From assembly GCF_030013595.1 (NCBI RefSeq), contig NZ_CP122768.1: 64,000 bases of DNA; one strand, written 5' to 3'. Shown piece by piece: positions 2,854 to 64,000 of this stretch. Each line of letters begins with the position of its first letter. Within the stretch, counting starts at the first letter, position 1. The stretch comes from Escherichia coli (GTDB lineage Bacteria; Pseudomonadota; Gammaproteobacteria; Enterobacterales; Enterobacteriaceae). The notes below the pieces were generated by a model that saw nothing but the letters and a program-made list of their open reading frames with translations, had not been told where the DNA came from and made no database searches. Position numbers and translations under genes: made by a program.

Positions 2854-3705
2854 TTAACCCGCGTAAGCTGCCAGCATTTCCTGCGCCGCCAGTTTACCCA
2901 ACGCATTCGCTGCGAAAGGACTGTCGCCGGTGAGAACTTTACGGTCCTTATGTACTCGCCCGGTGATGTCGTCATTAATGATGTTCATGCCCATTTTCTT
3001 CAGCTCTTCGCCAAAGTACCAGGTGAGATGACCCGGCATATAGCCTATCTCTGGTGTTTGTTTGTCTGCGGCGTCTGGGAATGCGCAAATGGAATAACCA
3101 TTCAGTGGGTTATCGCCGTGGCGAAGTGCCAGAAAAGCCGCCGGGCCGTGGCAAAGGGAGATAACAAAACGGTCATTTTTGATTGCCCACTGTAAAGCGG
3201 CAGCTACGTCCTGGCTTTCAGGTAAACCAATAAGTGCGCCATGACCACCAGGAACAAAGATTGCTGCATATTCGCTGTCAGCGTTGAGGCTGGCGACAAC
3301 ATCCGCGAGTTTCTTCGGATTGCGGAACAAAGATTTATGCTGCTCAAAGAATGGCATTACTTTTTCATCTTTGTGCGGCATAGCCCAGTATTCAAACTTG
3401 GTCATCAGACCGGAAATGGTCGCCACTTCGAATTCGAAACCTGCAGCGTGGAGATGATACAACGGCAGCAATGTTTCAATCGGATGGTTACCGGTCGAGA
3501 ACAGTTTTCCGTTATCGGTCGGCAAATAACGTTCGTCCGCGGCGATCACCAGAATTTTATGTTTACCGCGATACGGTTTTGGATAGTCCACGCCATCAAG
3601 ATCAGAGACAGGACTGGTATATTGGCTAAGCGAATATTCTGAAGGGAAGAATGCATTATCTTCAGCAATATCGACCTGCGGATTTTTACTTGTTTGAACA
3701 GTCAT
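2854..3705 (-). CDS. hchA: Hsp31 chaperone / glyoxalase III (DJ-1/PfpI family)
   Basis: 283-aa ORF recognised as HchA. Confidence 0.92.
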   Translation of the reverse strand: MTVQTSKNPQVDIAEDNAFFPSEYSLSQYTSPVSDLDGVDYPKPYRGKHKILVIAADERYLPTDNGKLFSTGNHPIETLLPLYHLHAAGFEFEVATISGLMTKFEYWAMPHKDEKVMPFFEQHKSLFRNPKKLADVVASLNADSEYAAIFVPGGHGALIGLPESQDVAAALQWAIKNDRFVISLCHGPAAFLALRHGDNPLNGYSICAFPDAADKQTPEIGYMPGHLTWYFGEELKKMGMNIINDDITGRVHKDRKVLTGDSPFAANALGKLAAQEMLAAYAG

Positions 3706-54105: not shown

Positions 54106-55182
54106 ATGAGTCGTTTGCTGATTAACGAAAACCCCCTTCAGGTCCTGCCCACGTTGGCATGCACTATAGGGTTGAATGAAGCCATCGTTCTACAGCAAAT
54201 CCACTACTGGCTGAATTCATCTCAAAATTTCTTCGAAAATCGCCACTGGGTGTACAACAGTGTGACCGATTGGCAAGAACAATTCCCGTTCTGGAGCGAG
54301 TCGACAATAAAACGCGTGCTGGCCAATCTGGAAAAATTGAATGTGGTATTTACTGGGAACTTTAACAGTGATGCCTGGGATAAAACCAAGTGGTATTCAA
54401 TCAATTATGCCCAGTTATGTAAGATTGAAGAGACAACATTCCCTGTGGCCAATCGATTAGGTCAAGTTGACCCAATCGAAGAGGTCAATGTGACCCAAGC
54501 ATCAGGTCAAGTTGACCCATGCGCTAAGGTCAAAATGACCCAATCTCTTACAGAGAATACAACAGAGAGTACTACAGAGAGTACTACAGAGATAAAAGAT
54601 CCCCCTTACCCCCAAAAGGGGGAGGGCGAGGAAATCATTCTCGCTGACGCTCAAAAAGCTCTGAACTACTACAACGAGAAAGTCGGTACACGCTGCCGCG
54701 ACGTTAAACCGTTTGTCATGCTGCTGACTGCCACCACCACCCGCGCTGGTTACAGCGTGGCTGAGATTCAGTTAGTAATTCGTTGGGTTATTGCGACATG
54801 GCGCCGTCGTAGCGGAAGCGTGCCGAAACCTGCGAACATTTGCCGCGTAAACCGGTTTGACGGATATCTGGCTGACGCTGAGGCGTGGGCCACTGCTGAG
54901 GCTGCCGTTGACCCTGCTGAAGTTGTGAAGGGCTACAACGAGATTCTGGGCGACCTGCTACCTATAGCTGAAATTGATACTGACCGCCGTCGGGCAATCC
55001 TGCGCCTGCTGGCACATATGCGCACGCAAACTCTTGGCGCATTTATCGGCTACTTCGAAAAATTCCGCGATAACGCCCCAGACTTCTATTTCGGCGGCGA
55101 ATATCGCACCGGCTGGCGGGCAGGGTTTGATTACCTGATGAAGCCAGAAACACTGCGTAAAACCAGGGAAGGGGCATTATGA
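54106..55182 (+). CDS. phage replisome organizer (O-like initiator)
   Basis: ORF 54070..55182; ATG 54106 after GGAG; iterons inside the coding sequence. Confidence 0.7.
   Translation: MSRLLINENPLQVLPTLACTIGLNEAIVLQQIHYWLNSSQNFFENRHWVYNSVTDWQEQFPFWSESTIKRVLANLEKLNVVFTGNFNSDAWDKTKWYSINYAQLCKIEETTFPVANRLGQVDPIEEVNVTQASGQVDPCAKVKMTQSLTENTTESTTESTTEIKDPPYPQKGEGEEIILADAQKALNYYNEKVGTRCRDVKPFVMLLTATTTRAGYSVAEIQLVIRWVIATWRRRSGSVPKPANICRVNRFDGYLADAEAWATAEAAVDPAEVVKGYNEILGDLLPIAEIDTDRRRAILRLLAHMRTQTLGAFIGYFEKFRDNAPDFYFGGEYRTGWRAGFDYLMKPETLRKTREGAL
54459..54542 (+). repeat. four iterons AGGTCAAnnTGACCCA at 22-23 bp spacing (candidate ori)
   Basis: Copies at 54459, 54482, 54504 and 54527; followed by tandem acagagagtact repeats. 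Confidence 0.7.
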
Positions 55183-56570
55183 ATCCAGAAGAACTGGAAG
55201 CGATCGTTCTCGCTGGTCTGATTAACGGTGGCGCGACGCCTGACGCGTTTGATGTGATTGCCACTACTCCGGAGGAAGCCTTCAGCATCGTGTTTCACCG
55301 TCGCGCTTTCAGCGAAATCAAAAAGCAGGCACTGGCGAACGGCATGATCGACATGTTGTTTATCAGCGAAGCGCTGGGCGGTTCCAGCCTTGCGGATCTG
55401 TCTCAAATATCCCGGATCCCGGCAACGGTACCGAATCTGAAAGGCTATGCCGGGAAAATGGTGCGGGCATGGCGGAGCCGCAAAATGGCGGCATTGTTGC
55501 AATCTGGCGCGGATGGTATCCGTAACGCTGTAAACCAGAGTCAGCGTGATGAGGTTATTGAATCTCATGTTGCTCAGGTGCTGGATATGAGCGCCGCTAC
55601 CGGCACAGTCCAGCCGGTACACATCAAAGAGCTGTTACCGCTCTACATTGACACCGTTGATAAACGGATGTCTGGCGACGCGCAGGAAATGATGCTGAAA
55701 ACCGGAGTCGAGGATCTGGATGTCGCCCTGGGCGGTATCAACATGACCGACCTTGTTGTGGTTGCCGGTCGTCCAGGCATGGGGAAAACGGAATTTACCC
55801 TGAAGATTATCGATGGCGTTACCGCAGATGGCGGCGGCGCACTGTTTTTCAGCATGGAAATGGGCGCTCAGCAGATTGTTGAACGTACCGTTGCCGGGGC
55901 TGGGAATATGTCCACGTCGCGTCTGCGTAATCCAAAAGAAATGGACGATGAGGATTTGACCAGATTAACCGCCGCGCTTGCAATCATGCAGGATCGCGAT
56001 ATCTGGATTGTTGATGCCACTGATTTGACGATTGAGCAGATCCGCGCCATTGCAGAGACTCATAAACGCCGTTATCCGCACCTGAAGTTGATTGGTGTTG
56101 ATTACATGGGCCTGATCAAAAAACCGAAGGCCGAGCGCCACGATCTCGCTGTCGGGCATATCTCCCGCAACATGAAGACTATGGCCATGCGTCTGCATAC
56201 CCCTGTTTTTGCTCTTAGCCAGCTTTCCCGCCAGGTGGATTCTCGACCTGCTGGCCAGCGTCGCCCGGTGATGTCGGACCTGCGCGATTCCGGCAGTGTT
56301 GAGCAGGACGCTGACAGCATTTTGTTTTTGTACCGCGATGAAGTTTACACACCTGATTCACCTGCAAAGGGTATCGCCGAGGTGATTATCGGTAAAAACC
56401 GTTCTGGCGGGGCAGGTGAAATTATTTATCAGGAATTCCGGAATGGGCATTTCCTGCCAATTGATCAACACGTAGCACGCGAAAAATTACGCATCCAGAA
56501 GGAGGCAGAGCAACCGAGAAAACGTGAAAAACGGTATTCAAACAAAAACTTTAATACGGACCCATTTTAA
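55179..56570 (+). CDS. DnaB-family replicative helicase
   Basis: 463-aa ORF; Walker A GRPGMGKTEF. Confidence 0.85.
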   Translation: MNPEELEAIVLAGLINGGATPDAFDVIATTPEEAFSIVFHRRAFSEIKKQALANGMIDMLFISEALGGSSLADLSQISRIPATVPNLKGYAGKMVRAWRSRKMAALLQSGADGIRNAVNQSQRDEVIESHVAQVLDMSAATGTVQPVHIKELLPLYIDTVDKRMSGDAQEMMLKTGVEDLDVALGGINMTDLVVVAGRPGMGKTEFTLKIIDGVTADGGGALFFSMEMGAQQIVERTVAGAGNMSTSRLRNPKEMDDEDLTRLTAALAIMQDRDIWIVDATDLTIEQIRAIAETHKRRYPHLKLIGVDYMGLIKKPKAERHDLAVGHISRNMKTMAMRLHTPVFALSQLSRQVDSRPAGQRRPVMSDLRDSGSVEQDADSILFLYRDEVYTPDSPAKGIAEVIIGKNRSGGAGEIIYQEFRNGHFLPIDQHVAREKLRIQKEAEQPRKREKRYSNKNFNTDPF

Positions 56571-56608
56571 CCACGCATGACCAGCGTGAAATAACCGAGG
56601 AAAGACCA

Positions 56609-57019
56609 ATGACCACCATTTCAGGCAAATTAGAGTACCCGTCGGACAAAGGACACATAGACGACGGTAAAAACTATCTCGACGTCATTTTGTGGAATAT
56701 GAACGCCGGGCCACGTGCGCGCACTCGTGCGGTTTTTGTACCAAGACCCAAAGCAGGCAATTTTTCAACACCAGCTCAGCCTGCCCGTCAGGCATCCGTA
56801 GCCGCAGCGCCAGCAGTGAAATGTAAGGGTAAAACGCACATCGGGATCGCGATTCGCAGAAATGGTGAGCGGCAAGTGAAACTCCACGAAACAGCGACAA
56901 CCTGGTGTGCTTCACCGCATGAAACTTACGACAAGATAACCGGGCAGCGCATTGGTGCGCCTGGTCGCTGTCGCCTGCTGTTGAGCTCCATCACTCCGAT
57001 AGAAAAGAAAGGGGCGTGA
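56609..57019 (+). CDS. hypothetical phage protein
   Basis: 136-aa ORF preceded by conserved leader ...accgaggaaagaccaATG. Confidence 0.45.
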   Translation: MTTISGKLEYPSDKGHIDDGKNYLDVILWNMNAGPRARTRAVFVPRPKAGNFSTPAQPARQASVAAAPAVKCKGKTHIGIAIRRNGERQVKLHETATTWCASPHETYDKITGQRIGAPGRCRLLLSSITPIEKKGA

Positions 57020-57020
57020 T

Positions 57021-57257
57021 ATGACCGGGCAATCAGATTACCTGCCGCCCGGCTTACCACACAACCGCGCCAAATGGCCCCAGGAATACCAGCTTAAAGA
57101 GCACTACGACATGCGAGCGGCGGCGCTGATCCGCCAACTCTTTGAGAAACGTATTCCGAGGGGAAGCGTGATTGAGCAAATCGGAATGACGCCGGATACA
57201 TACCGGGAATTTTTCAGAGAGCGTCTGAACTACTGGAGAGGGGTGATGGAACAATGA
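57021..57257 (+). CDS. hypothetical phage protein
   Basis: 78-aa ORF tightly packed in operon. Confidence 0.4.
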   Translation: MTGQSDYLPPGLPHNRAKWPQEYQLKEHYDMRAAALIRQLFEKRIPRGSVIEQIGMTPDTYREFFRERLNYWRGVMEQ

Positions 57258-57565
57258 AATACAAACGGTGGGTGCGTGCGGAAGTCGTAATCATCAAACA
57301 ATGTGCAGGCAGCATGACAGTTGAACGTATAGGGCAGCTTATTGGCAGAACCGGTGCAGCGGTACGCACAAAAGCGCGCGAGCTGAAAATCTGTATGTAT
57401 CTGCGGGGTAATTATCATCAGTCAGCGAAATACTGCCAGGAGGATATCGAGCTGGCAAGGGAATTACATCAGTCGGGTATTAATCGCCAGGATATCGCGG
57501 AAAAACTCGAAATGCCGATCGGAGCGGTGAATCAGTTTGTTTATTTTGAGCGGAGGATTTCATGA
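57254..57565 (+). CDS. hypothetical phage protein, possible HTH
   Basis: 103-aa ORF overlapping neighbours by 4 nt. Confidence 0.4.
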   Translation: MKYKRWVRAEVVIIKQCAGSMTVERIGQLIGRTGAAVRTKARELKICMYLRGNYHQSAKYCQEDIELARELHQSGINRQDIAEKLEMPIGAVNQFVYFERRIS

Positions 57566-57786
57566 AAGAACTTTTTCTGGCATTTGTGCCCCGGTTTATT
57601 AATGACCAGATCGCACTGACTAATAATGGTGAACAATATGAAATTGCCTGCAGCATGGTGGATGTGAATCCTGGCGAACGGTATGACGCGATGTGTGACC
57701 TGAAAATATTTACCTGGCTGGGTTGGGCTATTCCGTGTGGAGAACCAACCAATATTCGCCCATTTGAGAGCAGGGAGGCTGTATGA
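57562..57786 (+). CDS. hypothetical phage protein
   Basis: 74-aa ORF. Confidence 0.35.
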   Translation: MKELFLAFVPRFINDQIALTNNGEQYEIACSMVDVNPGERYDAMCDLKIFTWLGWAIPCGEPTNIRPFESREAV

Positions 57787-57949
57787 GTGAATTGAAAATA
57801 CGAATGAACCCAAGTCGCAAGGCGATCAAATTTGCGCAGTGTGTCTTGCAGATGGCTGAAGGTGAATGTTATATAAAAGAGTGTCATGGATAACAAGGCA
57901 CTCACTATCAATGATTATCTGTTAAAAAAGCAATCGACAAGGAGTTGAA

Positions 57950-58207
57950 ATGCAGACTCAATTAAAGGTTAAAGGCGGTTATAGTCATTTTTTCTTCGCC
58001 AATATTGAAGTCTCACAAAGAGAGTCAAATGGCGGTTTGGTTGTCGTTAGGGATGTTAATATACCTATTACAACAACAACTCTCTCTCTGTTAGAGAATT
58101 ACGCTGTAGGGCAGGTGTTGACGTTAGAACAAAAGAATGGCGATTTTTTTGATGTGTATTACGTTGGAACTGATGGGAATAACTTTCAGTTTTCAACGCA
58201 CTGCTAA
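57950..58207 (+). CDS. hypothetical phage protein; its 3' end lies in left copy of a ~200-bp direct repeat
   Basis: 85-aa ORF with GGAG RBS. Confidence 0.45.
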   Translation: MQTQLKVKGGYSHFFFANIEVSQRESNGGLVVVRDVNIPITTTTLSLLENYAVGQVLTLEQKNGDFFDVYYVGTDGNNFQFSTHC

Positions 58208-58310
58208 TTTATCAAGGCCCTGTGAGCAGGGCCTTCGAAAGCCTACTAAAGTCTGTTTCATAGAGAGAGTTATTTGCGATTAAAAAGGTATTTGGTCACG
58301 ACCAGCACGA
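58114..58310. repeat. left copy of diverged ~200-bp direct repeat
   Basis: Aligns to 63183..63374 at roughly 85% identity with short indels. Confidence 0.7.
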
Positions 58311-58419
58311 TAGAGAATACATCTTTCAAAGTACCGCCCATATAAAACAGTTACATATGCACTTGATGACTAAGCTGGCACCAGGTTAACACCATGCGCC
58401 AGCTTGAAGGAGACTTCAG

Positions 58420-58593
58420 TTATTGGTTTCTGAGGAAAGCGATTCTTGAAAGGGTCATTTGCGTCTGGCAGTCGACCATTTTCTTGACTTCAGCATCTGT
58501 TCCTTTCTTGACTTCAGCATCTGTTCCCTGCATTGAAACTTTACCGCACATAGCATCCTTAGTTTTGATCCACTGGCGCTGAGAAGGCAGCAA
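58420..58593 (-). pseudogene. 3' fragment of lipoprotein gene split by IS629
   Basis: Joining across the IS with one copy of the ACT target duplication restores one frame to TAA at 58420..58422. Confidence 0.65.
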
Positions 58594-58649
58594 CTTGAAC
58601 CGCCCCGGAAATCCTGGAGACTAAACTCCCTGAGAAAGAGGTAAACAGG

Positions 58650-58976
58650 ATGACTAAAAATACTCGTTTTTCCCCCGAAGTCCGTCAGCGGGCGATTCGT
58701 ATGGTTCTGGAAAGTCAGGATGAATATGACTCACAGTGGGCGGCAATTTGTTCCATTGCCCCAAAGATTGGCTGTACGCCGGAGACTCTGCGTGTCTGGG
58801 TTCGCCAGCATGAGCGGGATACCGGGGGCGGTGATGGTGGGCTCACCAGCGCTGAACGTCAGCGTCTGAAAGAGCTGGAACGTGAAAATCGTGAACTGCG
58901 CCGCAGTAACGATATCCTTCGCCAGGCTTCCGCTTATTTTGCGAAGGCGGAGTTCGACCGCCTCTGGAAAAAATGA
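58650..58976 (+). CDS. IS3-family transposase OrfA
   Basis: 108-aa [25 protein letters not shown] recognised as IS629/IS1203 OrfA. Confidence 0.9.
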
Positions 58977-59863
58977 TGCCACTGCTGGATAAGCTGCGTG
59001 AGCAGTACGGGGTCGGACCGGTATGTAGCGAACTGCATATTGCCCCGTCAACGTATTACCATTGTCAGCAACAGCGACATCATCCGGATAAACGCAGTGC
59101 CCGTGCGCAGCACGATGACTGGCTGAAGAAAGAGATACAGCGCGTATACGATGAAAATCACCAGGTATACGGTGTGCGTAAAGTCTGGCGTCAGTTGTTA
59201 CGGGAAGGTATCAGAGTGGCCAGATGCACTGTGGCACGTCTCATGGCAGTTATGGGACTTGCCGGTGTTCTCCGGGGTAAAAAGGTCCGCACTACCGTCA
59301 GCCGGAAAGCCGTTGCCGCAGGCGACCGCGTAAACCGTCAGTTCGTGGCAGAACGACCTGACCAGCTGTGGGTGGCTGATTTTACTTACGTCAGCACATG
59401 GCAGGGCTTCGTCTATGTGGCGTTTATCATTGATGTGTTTGCCGGATACATCGTGGGGTGGCGGGTCTCATCGTCTATGGAAACGACATTCGTGCTGGAT
59501 GCGCTGGAGCAGGCGTTGTGGGCCCGTCGTCCGTCTGGCACCATCCATCACAGCGATAAAGGCTCTCAGTATGTGTCACTGGCCTATACGGAGCGACTAA
59601 AAGAAGCCGGATTACTGGCATCAACAGGGAGTACAGGCGACTCGTATGACAACGCGATGGCTGAGAGCATCAATGGTCTTTACAAAGCGGAGGTAATACA
59701 CCGTAAGAGCTGGAAAAAACGTGCAGAAGTGGAACTGGCCACACTAACGTGGGTGGACTGGTATAACAATCGACGATTGCTGGGAAGGCTGGGCCATACT
59801 CCTCCGGCAGAAGCAGAAAAAGCTTATTATGCTTCCATCGGAAACGATGATCTGGCAGCCTGA
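58973..59863 (+). CDS. IS3-family transposase OrfB (DDE integrase-like)
   Basis: 296-aa ORF overlapping orfA in -1 frame. Confidence 0.9.
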
Positions 59864-59905
59864 GTTCACAGATAAAACACTCTCCAGGAAACCCGGGGCG
59901 GTTCA

Positions 59906-60680
59906 ACTCTTTTTTCTTCGCCGGGGTTAACTTGCTCCAGACGGTATTCAAATCAGAGTCAGCATTTGCAAATGCCATTCGGGACTGATCAAGGCTTTCA
60001 GATTTTTGCGGCTGAAGTTGTGCCTGCCTCTCTTTTTGCTTCTCCGCCTCATACCTGGCCTGTTCCTGTGCCCTGAGTTGCACCTGTTGTTCCGCTTCAA
60101 TTTGACTCTGTTGGGCATCCTTAGCCTGCTGGATTTTCTGCTGCTCAACGATCGGGTTGATAATGGAAAGCGATGTCAGTAAAGCGGCGCCCACTGATAT
60201 CGGATTATCAGAAGAGGTTTTTACAAAAACGTTTTTCTGATCGTCGGTCGCCTGCACGGTGTAGGTGATACGCCTTGAAAAGGCGTTTGCGTTGTTCTCC
60301 AAAAACAGATTTTCCATTTGCTTATCGAGATTACGATTAAAATTCTTTCTGTAAGCATCTGAAAGCTGGACGTACTCGTTCGCAGGTAGAGTCATCGTCA
60401 CGGTCCCTTCACAAGTTTTCATTGTGCTGCCCGTGTCACTTGATGTTGTGGAGATTTCAGAGACGGCTAGTTTGATCTTGTCCAGTGTGCTTCGTTTGGT
60501 CTGATTAGTGACATCAGGGTATTTATCGACCTGTTCAGAGAGTCCTTCATAAGCAGATTTTTTTAATAAATCCATGAGAGCTGATTGGGTCATTTCCGAA
60601 GAACAACCGATCTCATCTTTTTTGTTATCACAGCCTGTAAGGGCAATGGCGAGTAAGAGTACTGAGTATTTTAATCTCAT
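59906..60680 (-). pseudogene. 5' fragment of lipoprotein gene split by IS629
   Basis: ORF 59670..60680 has lipobox LTGC; after codon 258 it reads into the IS629 right end. Confidence 0.7.
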
Positions 60681-61436
60681 GAATTCCCTTTAGAGTAAGG
60701 ATTGGTTTTTAAGACGCGGTCTGTAATCAGTTCCGAGAGCTACAGTAAACAACGCTGAGCACTGAACGCATCACAGGCAAGGTAAAAGGTGATATCGGCA
60801 AAGGCTGTGAAACCTTTAATTCAACAGATGGGAACGGTATGCACAGGATCCTGTAACGACGCTCCCAAAACTGGAAACCTGTAAGGCATGTTTTCGCTGC
60901 TGAACTTAATATACGAACCTGCACTATCATGAACATATTTTATATCGTTATACCCCGAGTGATTGTGCCCGGCAATGGATAGTGTCCTGGAGGAATTATT
61001 TCTAATGTAAAAGGAAGATATTTAATTTCGATGTGGGATTATTACCTGTCTATAAGAACAATGACTTTATCTGGCAGTAAGCAGACATCTATTAGCTTAC
61101 TGAAGGGGGGCTGTGATTTGACCATTAACGGCATGAGATATATTGTCTATTGGTGATTGTTCTGAGGCCGATATCACGTTAACGACCAAGTAAAATAACA
61201 TGAAAAATTATTTATTAATGATTGCCAGCATTAAATGTAGTGATACCTCATTAGCAGGGTGCTCCGCAATGACTGCGATGAACTAAAAAATCAGTCATAA
61301 CCATGAAAAAAACAAGTGTATCAGCGAAATTAAATCTGGTGAAAGCATTTAATTACTTGTTAATGACGCAATAAAAACATACTATGGAAATGTAACAGCT
61401 AATCTACAGTTCTTGTCAATAGGGGCGCACAAGAAA

Positions 61437-62027
61437 ATGTTAAATGAATTTAAGGAAAAGCTACTATCCGACGATATCCGCGATGTCTACCAACGATACC
61501 TTTTAGGACATGACATCTGGTATTTTCGGGAACAAAAAAAATCAATAACCTTTGCTAAAGATTATGATGAGTTTAAGCTATATATGTCTAAGAAGCTTGA
61601 AATTCATGTAAATAATATTGCAATTGTTGGAAGTGCTAAGATGGGATTCAGCTTGAGCCCTGATAAAAATTATCGAACATTTAACGATGAGTCAGATATA
61701 GACTTGGTTTTAGTATCCGACAGAATTTATAAATCTTCCTGGATGGCATTTATTGAATTACAATCAAAGAATTATTTGCCTGTATATGCTCCTGTAGCTA
61801 AAAATATTTTCAAAGGATTCGTGTCATTGAAGGAGTTAGATATTAGAGTCGATTTTTTTAATAAATGGTCCCGTAACGTTGAACCATTAAAAAAAGACAT
61901 TCAAACTATTTTTGGAATACCTAACGACATCAACTACAGAATTTATGACTCTTGGGAGTCCGTTGAACGCTATCACATAGCTGGGTTGAATAGTCTAAAA
62001 GATAAGTTACAAGGACAATTGATATGA
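61437..62027 (+). CDS. small Pol-beta-superfamily nucleotidyltransferase-like protein
   Basis: ORF 61413..62027 opens on TTG, first ATG 61437; IVGSAKMGFS...ESDIDLVLV fits the GS...DxD pattern; low GC; stop overlaps next start (ATGA). Confidence 0.65.
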   Translation: MLNEFKEKLLSDDIRDVYQRYLLGHDIWYFREQKKSITFAKDYDEFKLYMSKKLEIHVNNIAIVGSAKMGFSLSPDKNYRTFNDESDIDLVLVSDRIYKSSWMAFIELQSKNYLPVYAPVAKNIFKGFVSLKELDIRVDFFNKWSRNVEPLKKDIQTIFGIPNDINYRIYDSWESVERYHIAGLNSLKDKLQGQLI

Positions 62028-63082
62028 GAGCTATTGATCTAATTAAAGTTGAATCGAAAGACATTAAATGGTTGACGGATAATTTGAAATCAGGTGTTAT
62101 TACAGTTGATAATTCATATCAGAGAAAATATATCTGGCAGCAAAAAGACCAAGTGGCCTTAATTGAGACAATATTAATTGGCTACCCAATCCCTGAGATT
62201 TACCTTTGGGCAAATAATACTGATCCTGACACTGGAGATACTAAATATTCAATTGTAGATGGACAGCAAAGGCTAACCACAATCCAGCGATATTTAAATG
62301 ATGAGTTTAAGTTAAGCAAAGCAGCTATAGATGATAAAGAAGCCGACTATAGTGGGAAAATTTTTTCAGAATTGTCGGCAGATAACAAACGTGATTTTTG
62401 GCGATACCAATTCTCATCCAGATTTATTAATGAATCATTGAGATATGATGAGATTGCAAAGTTATTTTTACGTCTAAATAGAACAAATACTACGTTAAAT
62501 CCTCAAGAACTTCGTAATGCTGAATTTAATGGCGAGTTTTTAAGATTAGCCGAAGAAATTGCACAAAATGAATTTTGGGATAATTATAAGATATTTACTC
62601 AGTCAGATATCCGTCGGATGCAAGACATTCAATTCATCAGCACATTATTGATTTTCTTACGAATGGGTATTGAGCAGGATAATACACAAAAATCAATTAA
62701 TCGAGTGTATGATCAATACAATGAGAATTACCCTGAGGCGACTGAGGACAGAATTATCTTTAACGAAGTGTTAAGGATCATATCTCAAATTATCAACAAT
62801 AAACAAGTATTAGAATCAGTTGTAAAGAAAAAAGGCCATTTGTATTTTATATTTGTGCTGGCATACTATTATTTACAGCTTAGTAAATCTAAGCTTGTTG
62901 ATATGAATGTTATTAGTTCAAAGCTCGAGGATTTTTTTAATATTTATGAGTTAAATGAACAAGATAACCCCCATCCACTGGTTGAGGAATATAGATTCCT
63001 CAGCCAAGAGGGTTCAAAGAAGAGTCATAACAGACAGCGTAGATTTGATATTTTGAAAGAATTTTGCTCTTTACATGATTAA
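62024..63082 (+). CDS. DUF262 (ParB-like, GmrSD N-terminal type) protein; no recognisable nuclease domain
   Basis: 352-aa ORF with YQRKYIW and IVDGQQRLTT motifs; helical C-terminal half without HNH/DUF1524 motifs. Confidence 0.75.
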   Translation: MRAIDLIKVESKDIKWLTDNLKSGVITVDNSYQRKYIWQQKDQVALIETILIGYPIPEIYLWANNTDPDTGDTKYSIVDGQQRLTTIQRYLNDEFKLSKAAIDDKEADYSGKIFSELSADNKRDFWRYQFSSRFINESLRYDEIAKLFLRLNRTNTTLNPQELRNAEFNGEFLRLAEEIAQNEFWDNYKIFTQSDIRRMQDIQFISTLLIFLRMGIEQDNTQKSINRVYDQYNENYPEATEDRIIFNEVLRIISQIINNKQVLESVVKKKGHLYFIFVLAYYYLQLSKSKLVDMNVISSKLEDFFNIYELNEQDNPHPLVEEYRFLSQEGSKKSHNRQRRFDILKEFCSLHD

Positions 63083-63182
63083 ATGACGAAAGTGGGTTGT
63101 TTATAAGAATTGAATAAACAACCCATCATTTTAATGTACTCTGAATCCTCTCATTCTTAGTGAAATATTGTTTTTAGAACAC

Positions 63183-63374
63183 GTATTGACGTTAGAACAA
63201 AAAATAGATTTTTTTGTGATGTATTACGTTGGAGTTGATGGGATAATTATATGTTTTCAATACATTGTTAATTTATCAAGACCCTGCGACTAAGGTGTTC
63301 GAAAATCGACTAAAGTCTGTTTCATAGAGAGAGTTACTTGCGTTTAAAAAGGTATTTGGTCACGACCAACACGA
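63183..63374. repeat. right copy of diverged ~200-bp direct repeat (decayed copy of 3' end of 57950..58207 gene)
   Basis: Aligns to 58114..58310; reading frame broken by stops and indels. Confidence 0.7.
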
Positions 63375-63603
63375 GGCCGAATACCTCAGTTTAAGTACCG
63401 CTCATGTACAACAGTAACGTTTGCTGATAGTGTCGCATTATCTTGCAGAGGACGCAGGTTAAATAGAACAAGCATATGTACCTGGTTTTTGTAATATTGG
63501 GTATAACATATGCTTTATAGGAGCGCGCTCAATGACCAACCGAGAAAGAATCTCCTGACAGATACAGTTATTTTCACCCTCTCCATAACATAAGGGAGTT
63601 TTT

Positions 63604-64000
63604 ATGTCGGAAGTGAGTATCGTAGAAGACGCCCCACGCCCAGTAGTCGCCGAATTGGCAGATCTGTTACAAGCACAACCATTTCATCAGAATCAATATG
63701 ATAACTTATGTCGCTTTATGATTTATTTTTCCCTGGCTGAATCAAAGTTAACATCAATGGCTGCTGGCCTTGGTAGAACTGACGCACTGGCACAGGAACT
63801 GGTTGTGCATAACGGCATGGACAGTCAGACCATAGATGATTGCTATCGTTATTTTATACGACGCTATCGAGACAGCCCTGATAGCGATTACCGCTTCAAT
63901 AAACTGGCCCCGCCTGAGTATGTTAAGAATGCAATCAGAGAACGCTTTGTTACGCTACTTCAGATACAGTCTCCAACAATTGAAGATAAAATCAGCTTTG
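63604..64000 (+). CDS. hypothetical phage protein, 3' end beyond window
   Basis: Open frame from ATG 63604 (MSEVSIVEDAPRPVVAELADLL) with AGGGAG RBS, no stop before window end. Confidence 0.5.
   Translation, partial: MSEVSIVEDAPRPVVAELADLLQAQPFHQNQYDNLCRFMIYFSLAESKLTSMAAGLGRTDALAQELVVHNGMDSQTIDDCYRYFIRRYRDSPDSDYRFNKLAPPEYVKNAIRERFVTLLQIQSPTIEDKISF

Follow-up and report, generated by a model that had tools for sequence, protein, structure and literature searches.

Lambdoid phages are said to carry morons (a concept that goes under the names of Hendrix and Juhala), accessory genes that reportedly have a promoter and a terminator of their own and are inserted between core genes. H-NS reportedly binds and silences, by preference, horizontally acquired DNA whose AT content exceeds that of the enterobacterial genome, a view dating from 2006 that goes under the names of Navarre and Lucchini. 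Hotspot systems of P2-like prophages and P4-like satellites were cloned with their native promoters by Rousset et al. 2022 (PMC9122126), in the main text of which DUF262 and GmrSD are unmentioned. Menshen (NsnABC; Millman 2022) consists of NsnA, the ABC ATPase NsnB and the effector NsnC, according to PMC12065111, where NsnA is described with a ParB-DUF262 domain and a C-terminal DNA-binding domain.

Here we consider 756 bp (60681-61436) in a window of Escherichia coli DNA, by which we mean the whole 64-kb stretch that was analysed. The region lies in a lambdoid prophage, in a module between the replication genes and the Q antiterminator, and separates a gene for an LprI-family lipoprotein from a two-gene cassette on the opposite strand (Table 1). 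In NZ_CM149870, which is 99.9% identical over the region, the gene order is repressor-like HTH, YdaT-family, replication protein, DnaB-type helicase, several small genes, LprI (opposite strand), a hypothetical 196-aa gene, DUF262 and, further on, DUF1367, DUF1364 and the Q antiterminator.

We think it probable that 60681-61436 is a composite spacer between two divergently oriented moron units in a swappable cargo module of lambdoid prophages. Given that three independent sets of relatives cut the region, the 756 bp can be divided into an LprI upstream region, a decayed joint, an orphan filler and a cassette leader. On the left, ~225 bp (in close relatives, as many as 436 bp) would be the upstream region of LprI, moving with LprI and holding its ribosome-binding site and presumably its promoter. 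The rightmost ~95 bp would be the promoter and short leader of a foreign cassette, with which they move into P2-like hotspots and integrase-associated islands. Between them, 155-225 bp of non-conserved AT-rich filler would lie at the joint where cargoes were exchanged by recombination.

As in morons, two accessory units (LprI and the two-gene cassette) are found between the replication and Q modules, with a base composition unlike that of the phage backbone. A promoter-like site that is conserved precedes the cassette and a hairpin follows it, and there is a presence/absence polymorphism that includes an empty site. Unlike in morons, the promoter and the terminator are putative here, the hairpin being without a good T-run, and gain or loss between the ~250-bp direct repeats affects both units at once, with the cargo beside LprI swapped separately.

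Table 1. Coordinates of the features in and around the spacer (window positions)
Feature	Position	Strand	Basis or remark
Direct repeat ('linker'), left copy, ~250 bp	58107-58360	+	80% identical to 63175-63424
LprI gene, 3' part	~58420-58594	-	split from the 5' part by IS3
IS3-family element	58595-59906		junctions mapped against intact loci; 3-4 bp overlap at junctions
LprI-family lipoprotein gene, 5' part	59907-60680	-	PGAP product name; Pfam PF07007 in intact copies
LprI-linked upstream segment	60681-60905	-	45.8% GC; co-inherited with LprI
LprI Shine-Dalgarno AAGGG	complement of 60686-60690	-	sequence
IS10 target site CGCTGAGCA	60753-60761		fits IS10 hotspot consensus NGCTNAGCN; empty in the window, IS10-occupied in other strains
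Segment shared with closer E. coli prophages only	60906-61116		left recombination joint of the variable cargo slot
Orphan AT-rich filler	61117-61271		36.1% GC
Weak colinear similarity segment	61272-61341	+	matches the upstream region of one related cassette (L007/L008)
Cassette promoter/leader, candidate	61342-61436	+	moves with the cassette into unrelated contexts
-35 TTGTTA	61357-61362	+	positionally conserved
-10 TACTAT	61380-61385	+	17-nt spacer from -35; 51 nt before ATG
Shine-Dalgarno-like GGGG	61422-61425	+	G-rich; sequence
MNT (minimal nucleotidyltransferase)-like protein, 196 aa	61437-62027	+	first cassette gene
NsnA-like ParB/DUF262 (GmrSD_N) protein, 352 aa	62024-63082	+	second cassette gene; 4-nt overlap with the first
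11-bp hairpin GGGTTGTTTAT / ATAAACAACCC	63094-63124	+	just after the cassette; read from sequence
Direct repeat ('linker'), right copy	63175-63424	+	with the left copy brackets LprI, spacer and cassette

Extent and base composition of the spacer

The region is a real, correctly delimited and ordinary non-coding region. On the left, the LprI ATG lies at 60680 (minus strand), with AAGGG before it and a lipoprotein signal peptide after it. On the right, the ATG at 61437 is the start common to a family of ~195-aa proteins and is also the choice of PGAP. The longest ORF inside is 69 aa (60727-60936, minus strand), and 60681-61412 is the longest internal gap of the window without an ORF of at least 80 aa. 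PGAP/RefSeq annotates no gene in the region in the two genomes that have all of it, and PGAP called none here among the listed genomes of the 441 that share its first 436 bp.

The GC content of the 756 bp is 38.6%, versus 49.2% in the window, which places it at the 5th percentile of 756-bp windows; the replication genes at 54106-56570 have 51.3%. Rather than being uniform, the region forms a gradient. The LprI-linked segment has a GC content of 45.8% and the adjacent LprI gene one of 44.8%, followed by 37.4% in 60906-61116, 36.1% in the orphan filler and ~32.7% in 61272-61436, from where low GC continues into the two cassette genes (32.6%). A single 2.4-kb block, 61000-63424, has 33.2%. The low GC reflects the composition of the imported cargo (61117 to ~63160) together with the decayed joint at 60906-61116.

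A first-pass annotation of this DNA had described a stretch with no convincing ORF and clearly lower GC, continuing into the two cassette genes. The absence of a convincing ORF is borne out: the 69-aa frame has no family match, and family searches, periodicity, stops and frameshifts, and PGAP calls brought up no conserved coding gene. The lower GC is confirmed for the 756 bp as a whole, from ~60906 onwards and in the cassette, and fails for the first 225 bp.

Base composition bears on the possibility that the AT-rich stretch and the cassette form a putative nucleation or silencing region for H-NS (or StpA/Hha), to which we would give somewhat less than an even chance, and which would add to the mosaic reading rather than replace it. 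Like xenogeneic targets of H-NS, this is a horizontally acquired AT-rich block (33-37% GC) that includes an intergenic region: an unbroken 2.4 kb has 33.2% GC, against ~50% in host and prophage, and GC is clearly under the host average from 60906 on. Weak promoter-like sites such as H-NS is known to suppress are also numerous on both strands. However, the left third is not AT-rich, and the high-affinity motif TCGATAAATT (at most one mismatch) has no match inside 60681-61436, the nearest lying at 60520-60529 and 61667-61676. Permanently silenced cargo would also not be expected to keep a promoter-like site across contexts. Silencing of 60906-63424 by H-NS is plausible by base composition.

The LprI unit and its upstream segment

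The first 225 bp of the spacer go with LprI. The segment accompanies LprI wherever an IMG/VR locus still has upstream sequence, and prophages with a divergent LprI (86-88% protein identity, full alignment) share with the window only 60681 to ~60835-60909. Identity to these divergent relatives is 82% in the 50 nt before LprI (-50 to 0), 74-75% from -150 to -50 and 63% from -225 to -150, against a neutral yardstick of 67-73% at the 4-fold degenerate sites of LprI. The segment therefore seems to drift at a roughly neutral rate and to be conserved above that rate only in the proximal part, which holds the ribosome-binding site. The upstream segments of the relatives have no positionally conserved sigma-70 site; we infer that LprI is transcribed from within its own conserved upstream segment.

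The LprI gene is interrupted in the window by an IS3-family element that carries a programmed-frameshift ALIL pseudoknot (Rfam). It is uninterrupted in NZ_CM149870, which has IS3 copies elsewhere, and in L009. The 3' part of the gene also contains a perfect 24-bp tandem duplication (TTTCTTGACTTCAGCATCTGTTCC twice, at 58480-58527), which gives a repeated 'GTDAEVKK' in the protein.

A second type of insertion sequence is found in the upstream segment of other strains. In L010 (CP057738), an IS10 (L010 3983-5322) is flanked by a 9-bp duplication of CGCTGAGCA, and the insertion point is 73-81 bp upstream of LprI. At this target, at 60750, homology breaks or rearranges in four further loci (L011, L013, L014 and L061).

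In a different setting (L039), LprI lies beside tail-fibre genes and an intact, divergent 119-aa ORF (2994-3353, on the minus strand of the locus). Window positions 60828-60849 are homologous to the beginning of this ORF and to the DNA ahead of it, which suggests that a piece of a former neighbour may have travelled along with the LprI unit.

The same segment holds most of what could be taken for a small or decayed gene hidden in the spacer, namely the 69-aa ORF, a ~36-aa ORF of divergent relatives or a divergent remnant from 60828; we regard such a gene as very improbable. The 69-aa ORF is intact in the window and in the SK1144-type prophage, and several divergent loci have an open frame of ~36 codons that ends 57 nt before LprI. 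However, variable columns in an alignment of 25 LprI-upstream sequences have no 3-periodicity (0.119, 0.108 and 0.106 by phase), and every frame is stopped in some lineage, with 1-nt and 4-nt deletions in L045 and L050 and internal stops in L026 and L028. In the frame of the 69-aa ORF, amino acid identity (counted from translations) is ~46%, well below the ~72-75% identity of the nucleotides, whereas purifying selection on a protein would give the reverse. The first ~7 codons of the intact L039 ORF align with the window (MGTVCTG... at 60828), but past these codons the 119-aa protein has no significant match in the window. Searches of the open frames against Pfam, NCBIfam and PHROG, and a tblastn search of the candidate remnant against phages, gave nothing.

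Several more specific candidates in the spacer were discarded. A metallophosphoesterase-like pseudogene on the minus strand ('AGHNHSGY...') has no match in Pfam, NCBIfam or PHROG or by tblastn against phages, and its frame is unconserved in divergent relatives. A pseudogene of the L039 119-aa gene was rejected because sharing is confined to the upstream DNA and the first ~7 codons, and tblastn gave no significant match. Two plus-strand ORFs (61201-61287, 28 aa; 61304-61375, 23 aa) have no Shine-Dalgarno sequence and no family match and were taken to be chance ORFs, and the inverted repeats I21 and I22 (14 nt) inside the region were judged to be chance matches.

The recombination joint and the orphan filler

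To the right of the LprI-linked segment the region is a mosaic, with homology to other prophages that ends at 60953, 61076, 61088 or 61116, depending on the genome. The first 273, 396 or 436 bp of the spacer are shared by 441-560 of 5426 complete E. coli genomes, in which other genes follow the shared part. Carriers of 60906-61116 are mostly of the prophage type of O25:H4 strains such as JJ1887. Between the window and SK1144, 60681-60995 differ by 4 substitutions and 60996-61116 by 27, and no homology is left beyond that point.

The filler that follows is present only where the same cassette sits in the same prophage. Searches with 61117-61271 gave no match in phages or plasmids or, by distant blastn, in other E. 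coli, and the segment does not resemble the DNA upstream of related cassettes. In IMG/VR, a scan for exact 27-mers recovered the same lineage only. From 61275 on, a weak similarity to the upstream region in L007/L008 appears (62% identity over 60 nt, E ~0.01-0.02), and 61272-61341 may be the outer margin of the cassette unit in a decayed state.

The cassette and its candidate promoter

The cassette is rare in E. coli, being found in 2 of 5426 complete genomes. Relatives with 49-91% protein identity occur in Enterobacter, Vibrio, Photobacterium, Yersinia and Serratia, in P2-like prophage hotspots and beside integrase genes (L003, L005, L006, L007, L015, L053 and L055-L059). Their contexts include two intervals of P2-like prophages, from the replication gene gpA to the portal gene and from tail gene S to V, as well as an Enterobacter chromosome and integrase-adjacent sites. 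In these other contexts, homology to the cassette gives out ~20 bp after the stop codon.

The second cassette protein matches Pfam GmrSD_N (1e-24) and the PADLOC models NsnA (4.3e-41, over positions 48-379 of 385) and PD-T4-2_A (2.5e-19); the 196-aa MNT-like protein has no PADLOC match. Residues D87 and D89 of the 196-aa protein are invariant, and the DUF262 protein carries a DGQQR motif. As in Menshen, there is a protein that fits the NsnA model end to end, with the ParB-DUF262 domain and the DNA-binding domain at the C-terminus. Unlike Menshen, the cassette is without NsnB and NsnC and has the 196-aa protein as a partner instead, and an ATPase gene was looked for near the cassette in at least 10 loci and found among the neighbours in none. 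Given the lack of NsnB and NsnC, the cassette is not a canonical Menshen system. Since the pair recurs in variable hotspots of P2-like prophages, it is a reasonable candidate for a defence system, and it may be an undescribed defence pair.

In the anti-phage hotspots of P2-like prophages, relatives of the same cassette each have a short upstream leader of their own. The slot considered here differs in that its prophage is lambdoid and its place is between the replication and Q modules, and in that the spacer is 756 bp long rather than ~100 bp as in L003. The greater length is explained by the upstream region of the neighbour and the filler that the spacer contains.

Nucleotide homology to cassettes elsewhere (~77-83% identity in other contexts) begins at 61342 in L015, 61367 in L007, 61409 in L005 and 61433-61437 in L003 and L006. 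Promoter-like hexamers are at the same aligned position in five of six independent genomic contexts with unrelated surroundings. The site in the window, TTGTTA-17-TACTAT, is aligned with TTGTTA-17-TAAGAT in L015, TTGTCA-17-TATTCT in L005 and L003, TTGTTA-17-TAGTAT in L006 and a weaker TTGCTT-17-TACTGT in L007. It scores 8/12 against the consensus, with a spacing of the hexamers that is conserved along with their position, and it is the only promoter-like site of the region that has comparative support. About a dozen other matches on both strands score equally at 8/12, and so many weak matches are as expected of AT-rich DNA. Farther upstream, at 61118-61146, there is also a TTGACC-17-TATTGT site. 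A scan with a threshold of 9/12 gave fewer sites than in shuffled sequence and passed over the cassette site, which is brought out by alignment instead. The upstream regions of the distant cassettes L055 and L057 (Yersinia and another E. coli clade; 49-57% protein identity) are unalignable, so that the conservation of the promoter-like site covers the closer clade only.

Judging from this conservation, we suspect that the hexamers act as a sigma-70 promoter, from which the 5' UTR of the cassette would be ~45-50 nt long, and that the cassette is probably expressed in lysogens. The candidate promoter and leader would then be the only supported functional element of the spacer. The native promoter of this uncharacterised, widespread two-gene cassette is probably at ~61342-61436, which would be useful for cloning with native expression. 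Downstream of the cassette, the hairpin has a 9-nt loop and a poor T-run and falls below the criteria of the terminator scan; it is possibly a weak terminator.

These comparisons also bear on the earlier suggestion that the 756 bp are the promoter region of foreign cargo. The foreign origin is upheld by the GC content of the cassette, its rarity in E. coli, its relatives in other genera and their location in P2-like hotspots and integrase-adjacent sites. A promoter is supported in the last ~95 bp, by the conserved hexamers, and not in the remaining upstream DNA. The notion of a single upstream region of the cassette has to be given up: the left 225-436 bp belong with LprI, which has the opposite orientation, and are common to hundreds of prophages with other cargo, and the middle ~155-225 bp are orphan sequence at a recombination joint. 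A long AT-rich spacer of this kind should not be taken for one functional unit.

It could be asked whether the spacer encodes a non-coding RNA, be it an sRNA, a transcript antisense to LprI or to the cassette, or a riboswitch or structured 5' leader by which the cassette is controlled; we consider this very unlikely. The non-coding stretch is long, spacers of similar length (~450-1190 bp) are found at the same slot in other prophages, and there are conserved blocks in the ~50 nt before the cassette ATG (GTTCTTG...ATA.GGCGC). However, an Rfam search of 56000-64000, with E values up to 1, matched only the IS3 pseudoknot. Fold z-scores against shuffled sequences were not significant in any segment tried (+1.42 for 61117-61436, plus strand; -1.22 for 60681-60910, minus strand; +0.15 for 60681-61116, plus strand). 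RNAalifold predicted no pairs in the cassette leader, and in the LprI-upstream alignment one of 39 pairs was compensatory, with a covariation term of +0.3.

Cargo exchange in the prophage module

At the level of the whole module, LprI, spacer and cassette are an insertion/deletion polymorphism between the ~250-bp direct repeats. In E. coli JNE151685 this prophage occurs without LprI and without the cassette, and here identical flanks enclose an empty site. A single chimeric copy of the repeat is left (L062, NZ_AP027258.1, 2940-3230), of which the left part corresponds to copy 1 and the right part to copy 2, and the module was therefore gained or lost by recombination between the linkers.

Within otherwise colinear prophages the cargo varies as well. 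The SK1144-type prophage (L002) has the same repeat-bracketed layout with different cargo, and in the IMG/VR loci L017, L019/L021 and L023, as in L002, other cargo occupies the slot that is equivalent to 61117-63160. The alternatives comprise a 221-aa protein (T5orf172/GIY-YIG-like by eye), a lipoprotein gene with 411-aa and GIY-YIG-like genes, and a 232-aa protein. The sequence comparison argues that the cargo beside LprI is exchanged separately from the whole module, apparently at joints inside the spacer. This documents a cargo-exchange slot in a common E. coli lambdoid prophage, also in O25:H4 strains such as JJ1887.

The alternative cargoes are preceded by non-coding spacers of ~0.45-1.2 kb. 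It would be tempting to see in the long AT-rich spacers beside LprI, of 756 bp here and ~1.0-1.2 kb in other lineages, a dedicated landing pad for the exchange of defence cargo, or in 61117-61271 a regulatory RNA or H-NS-dependent switch that couples expression of the cassette to the state of the prophage; we hold both to be extremely unlikely. The spacer itself poses no new biological question, and its practical value is small. The right copy of the repeat holds a truncated remnant of the 3' end of an 85-aa gene that is found at 57950-58207.
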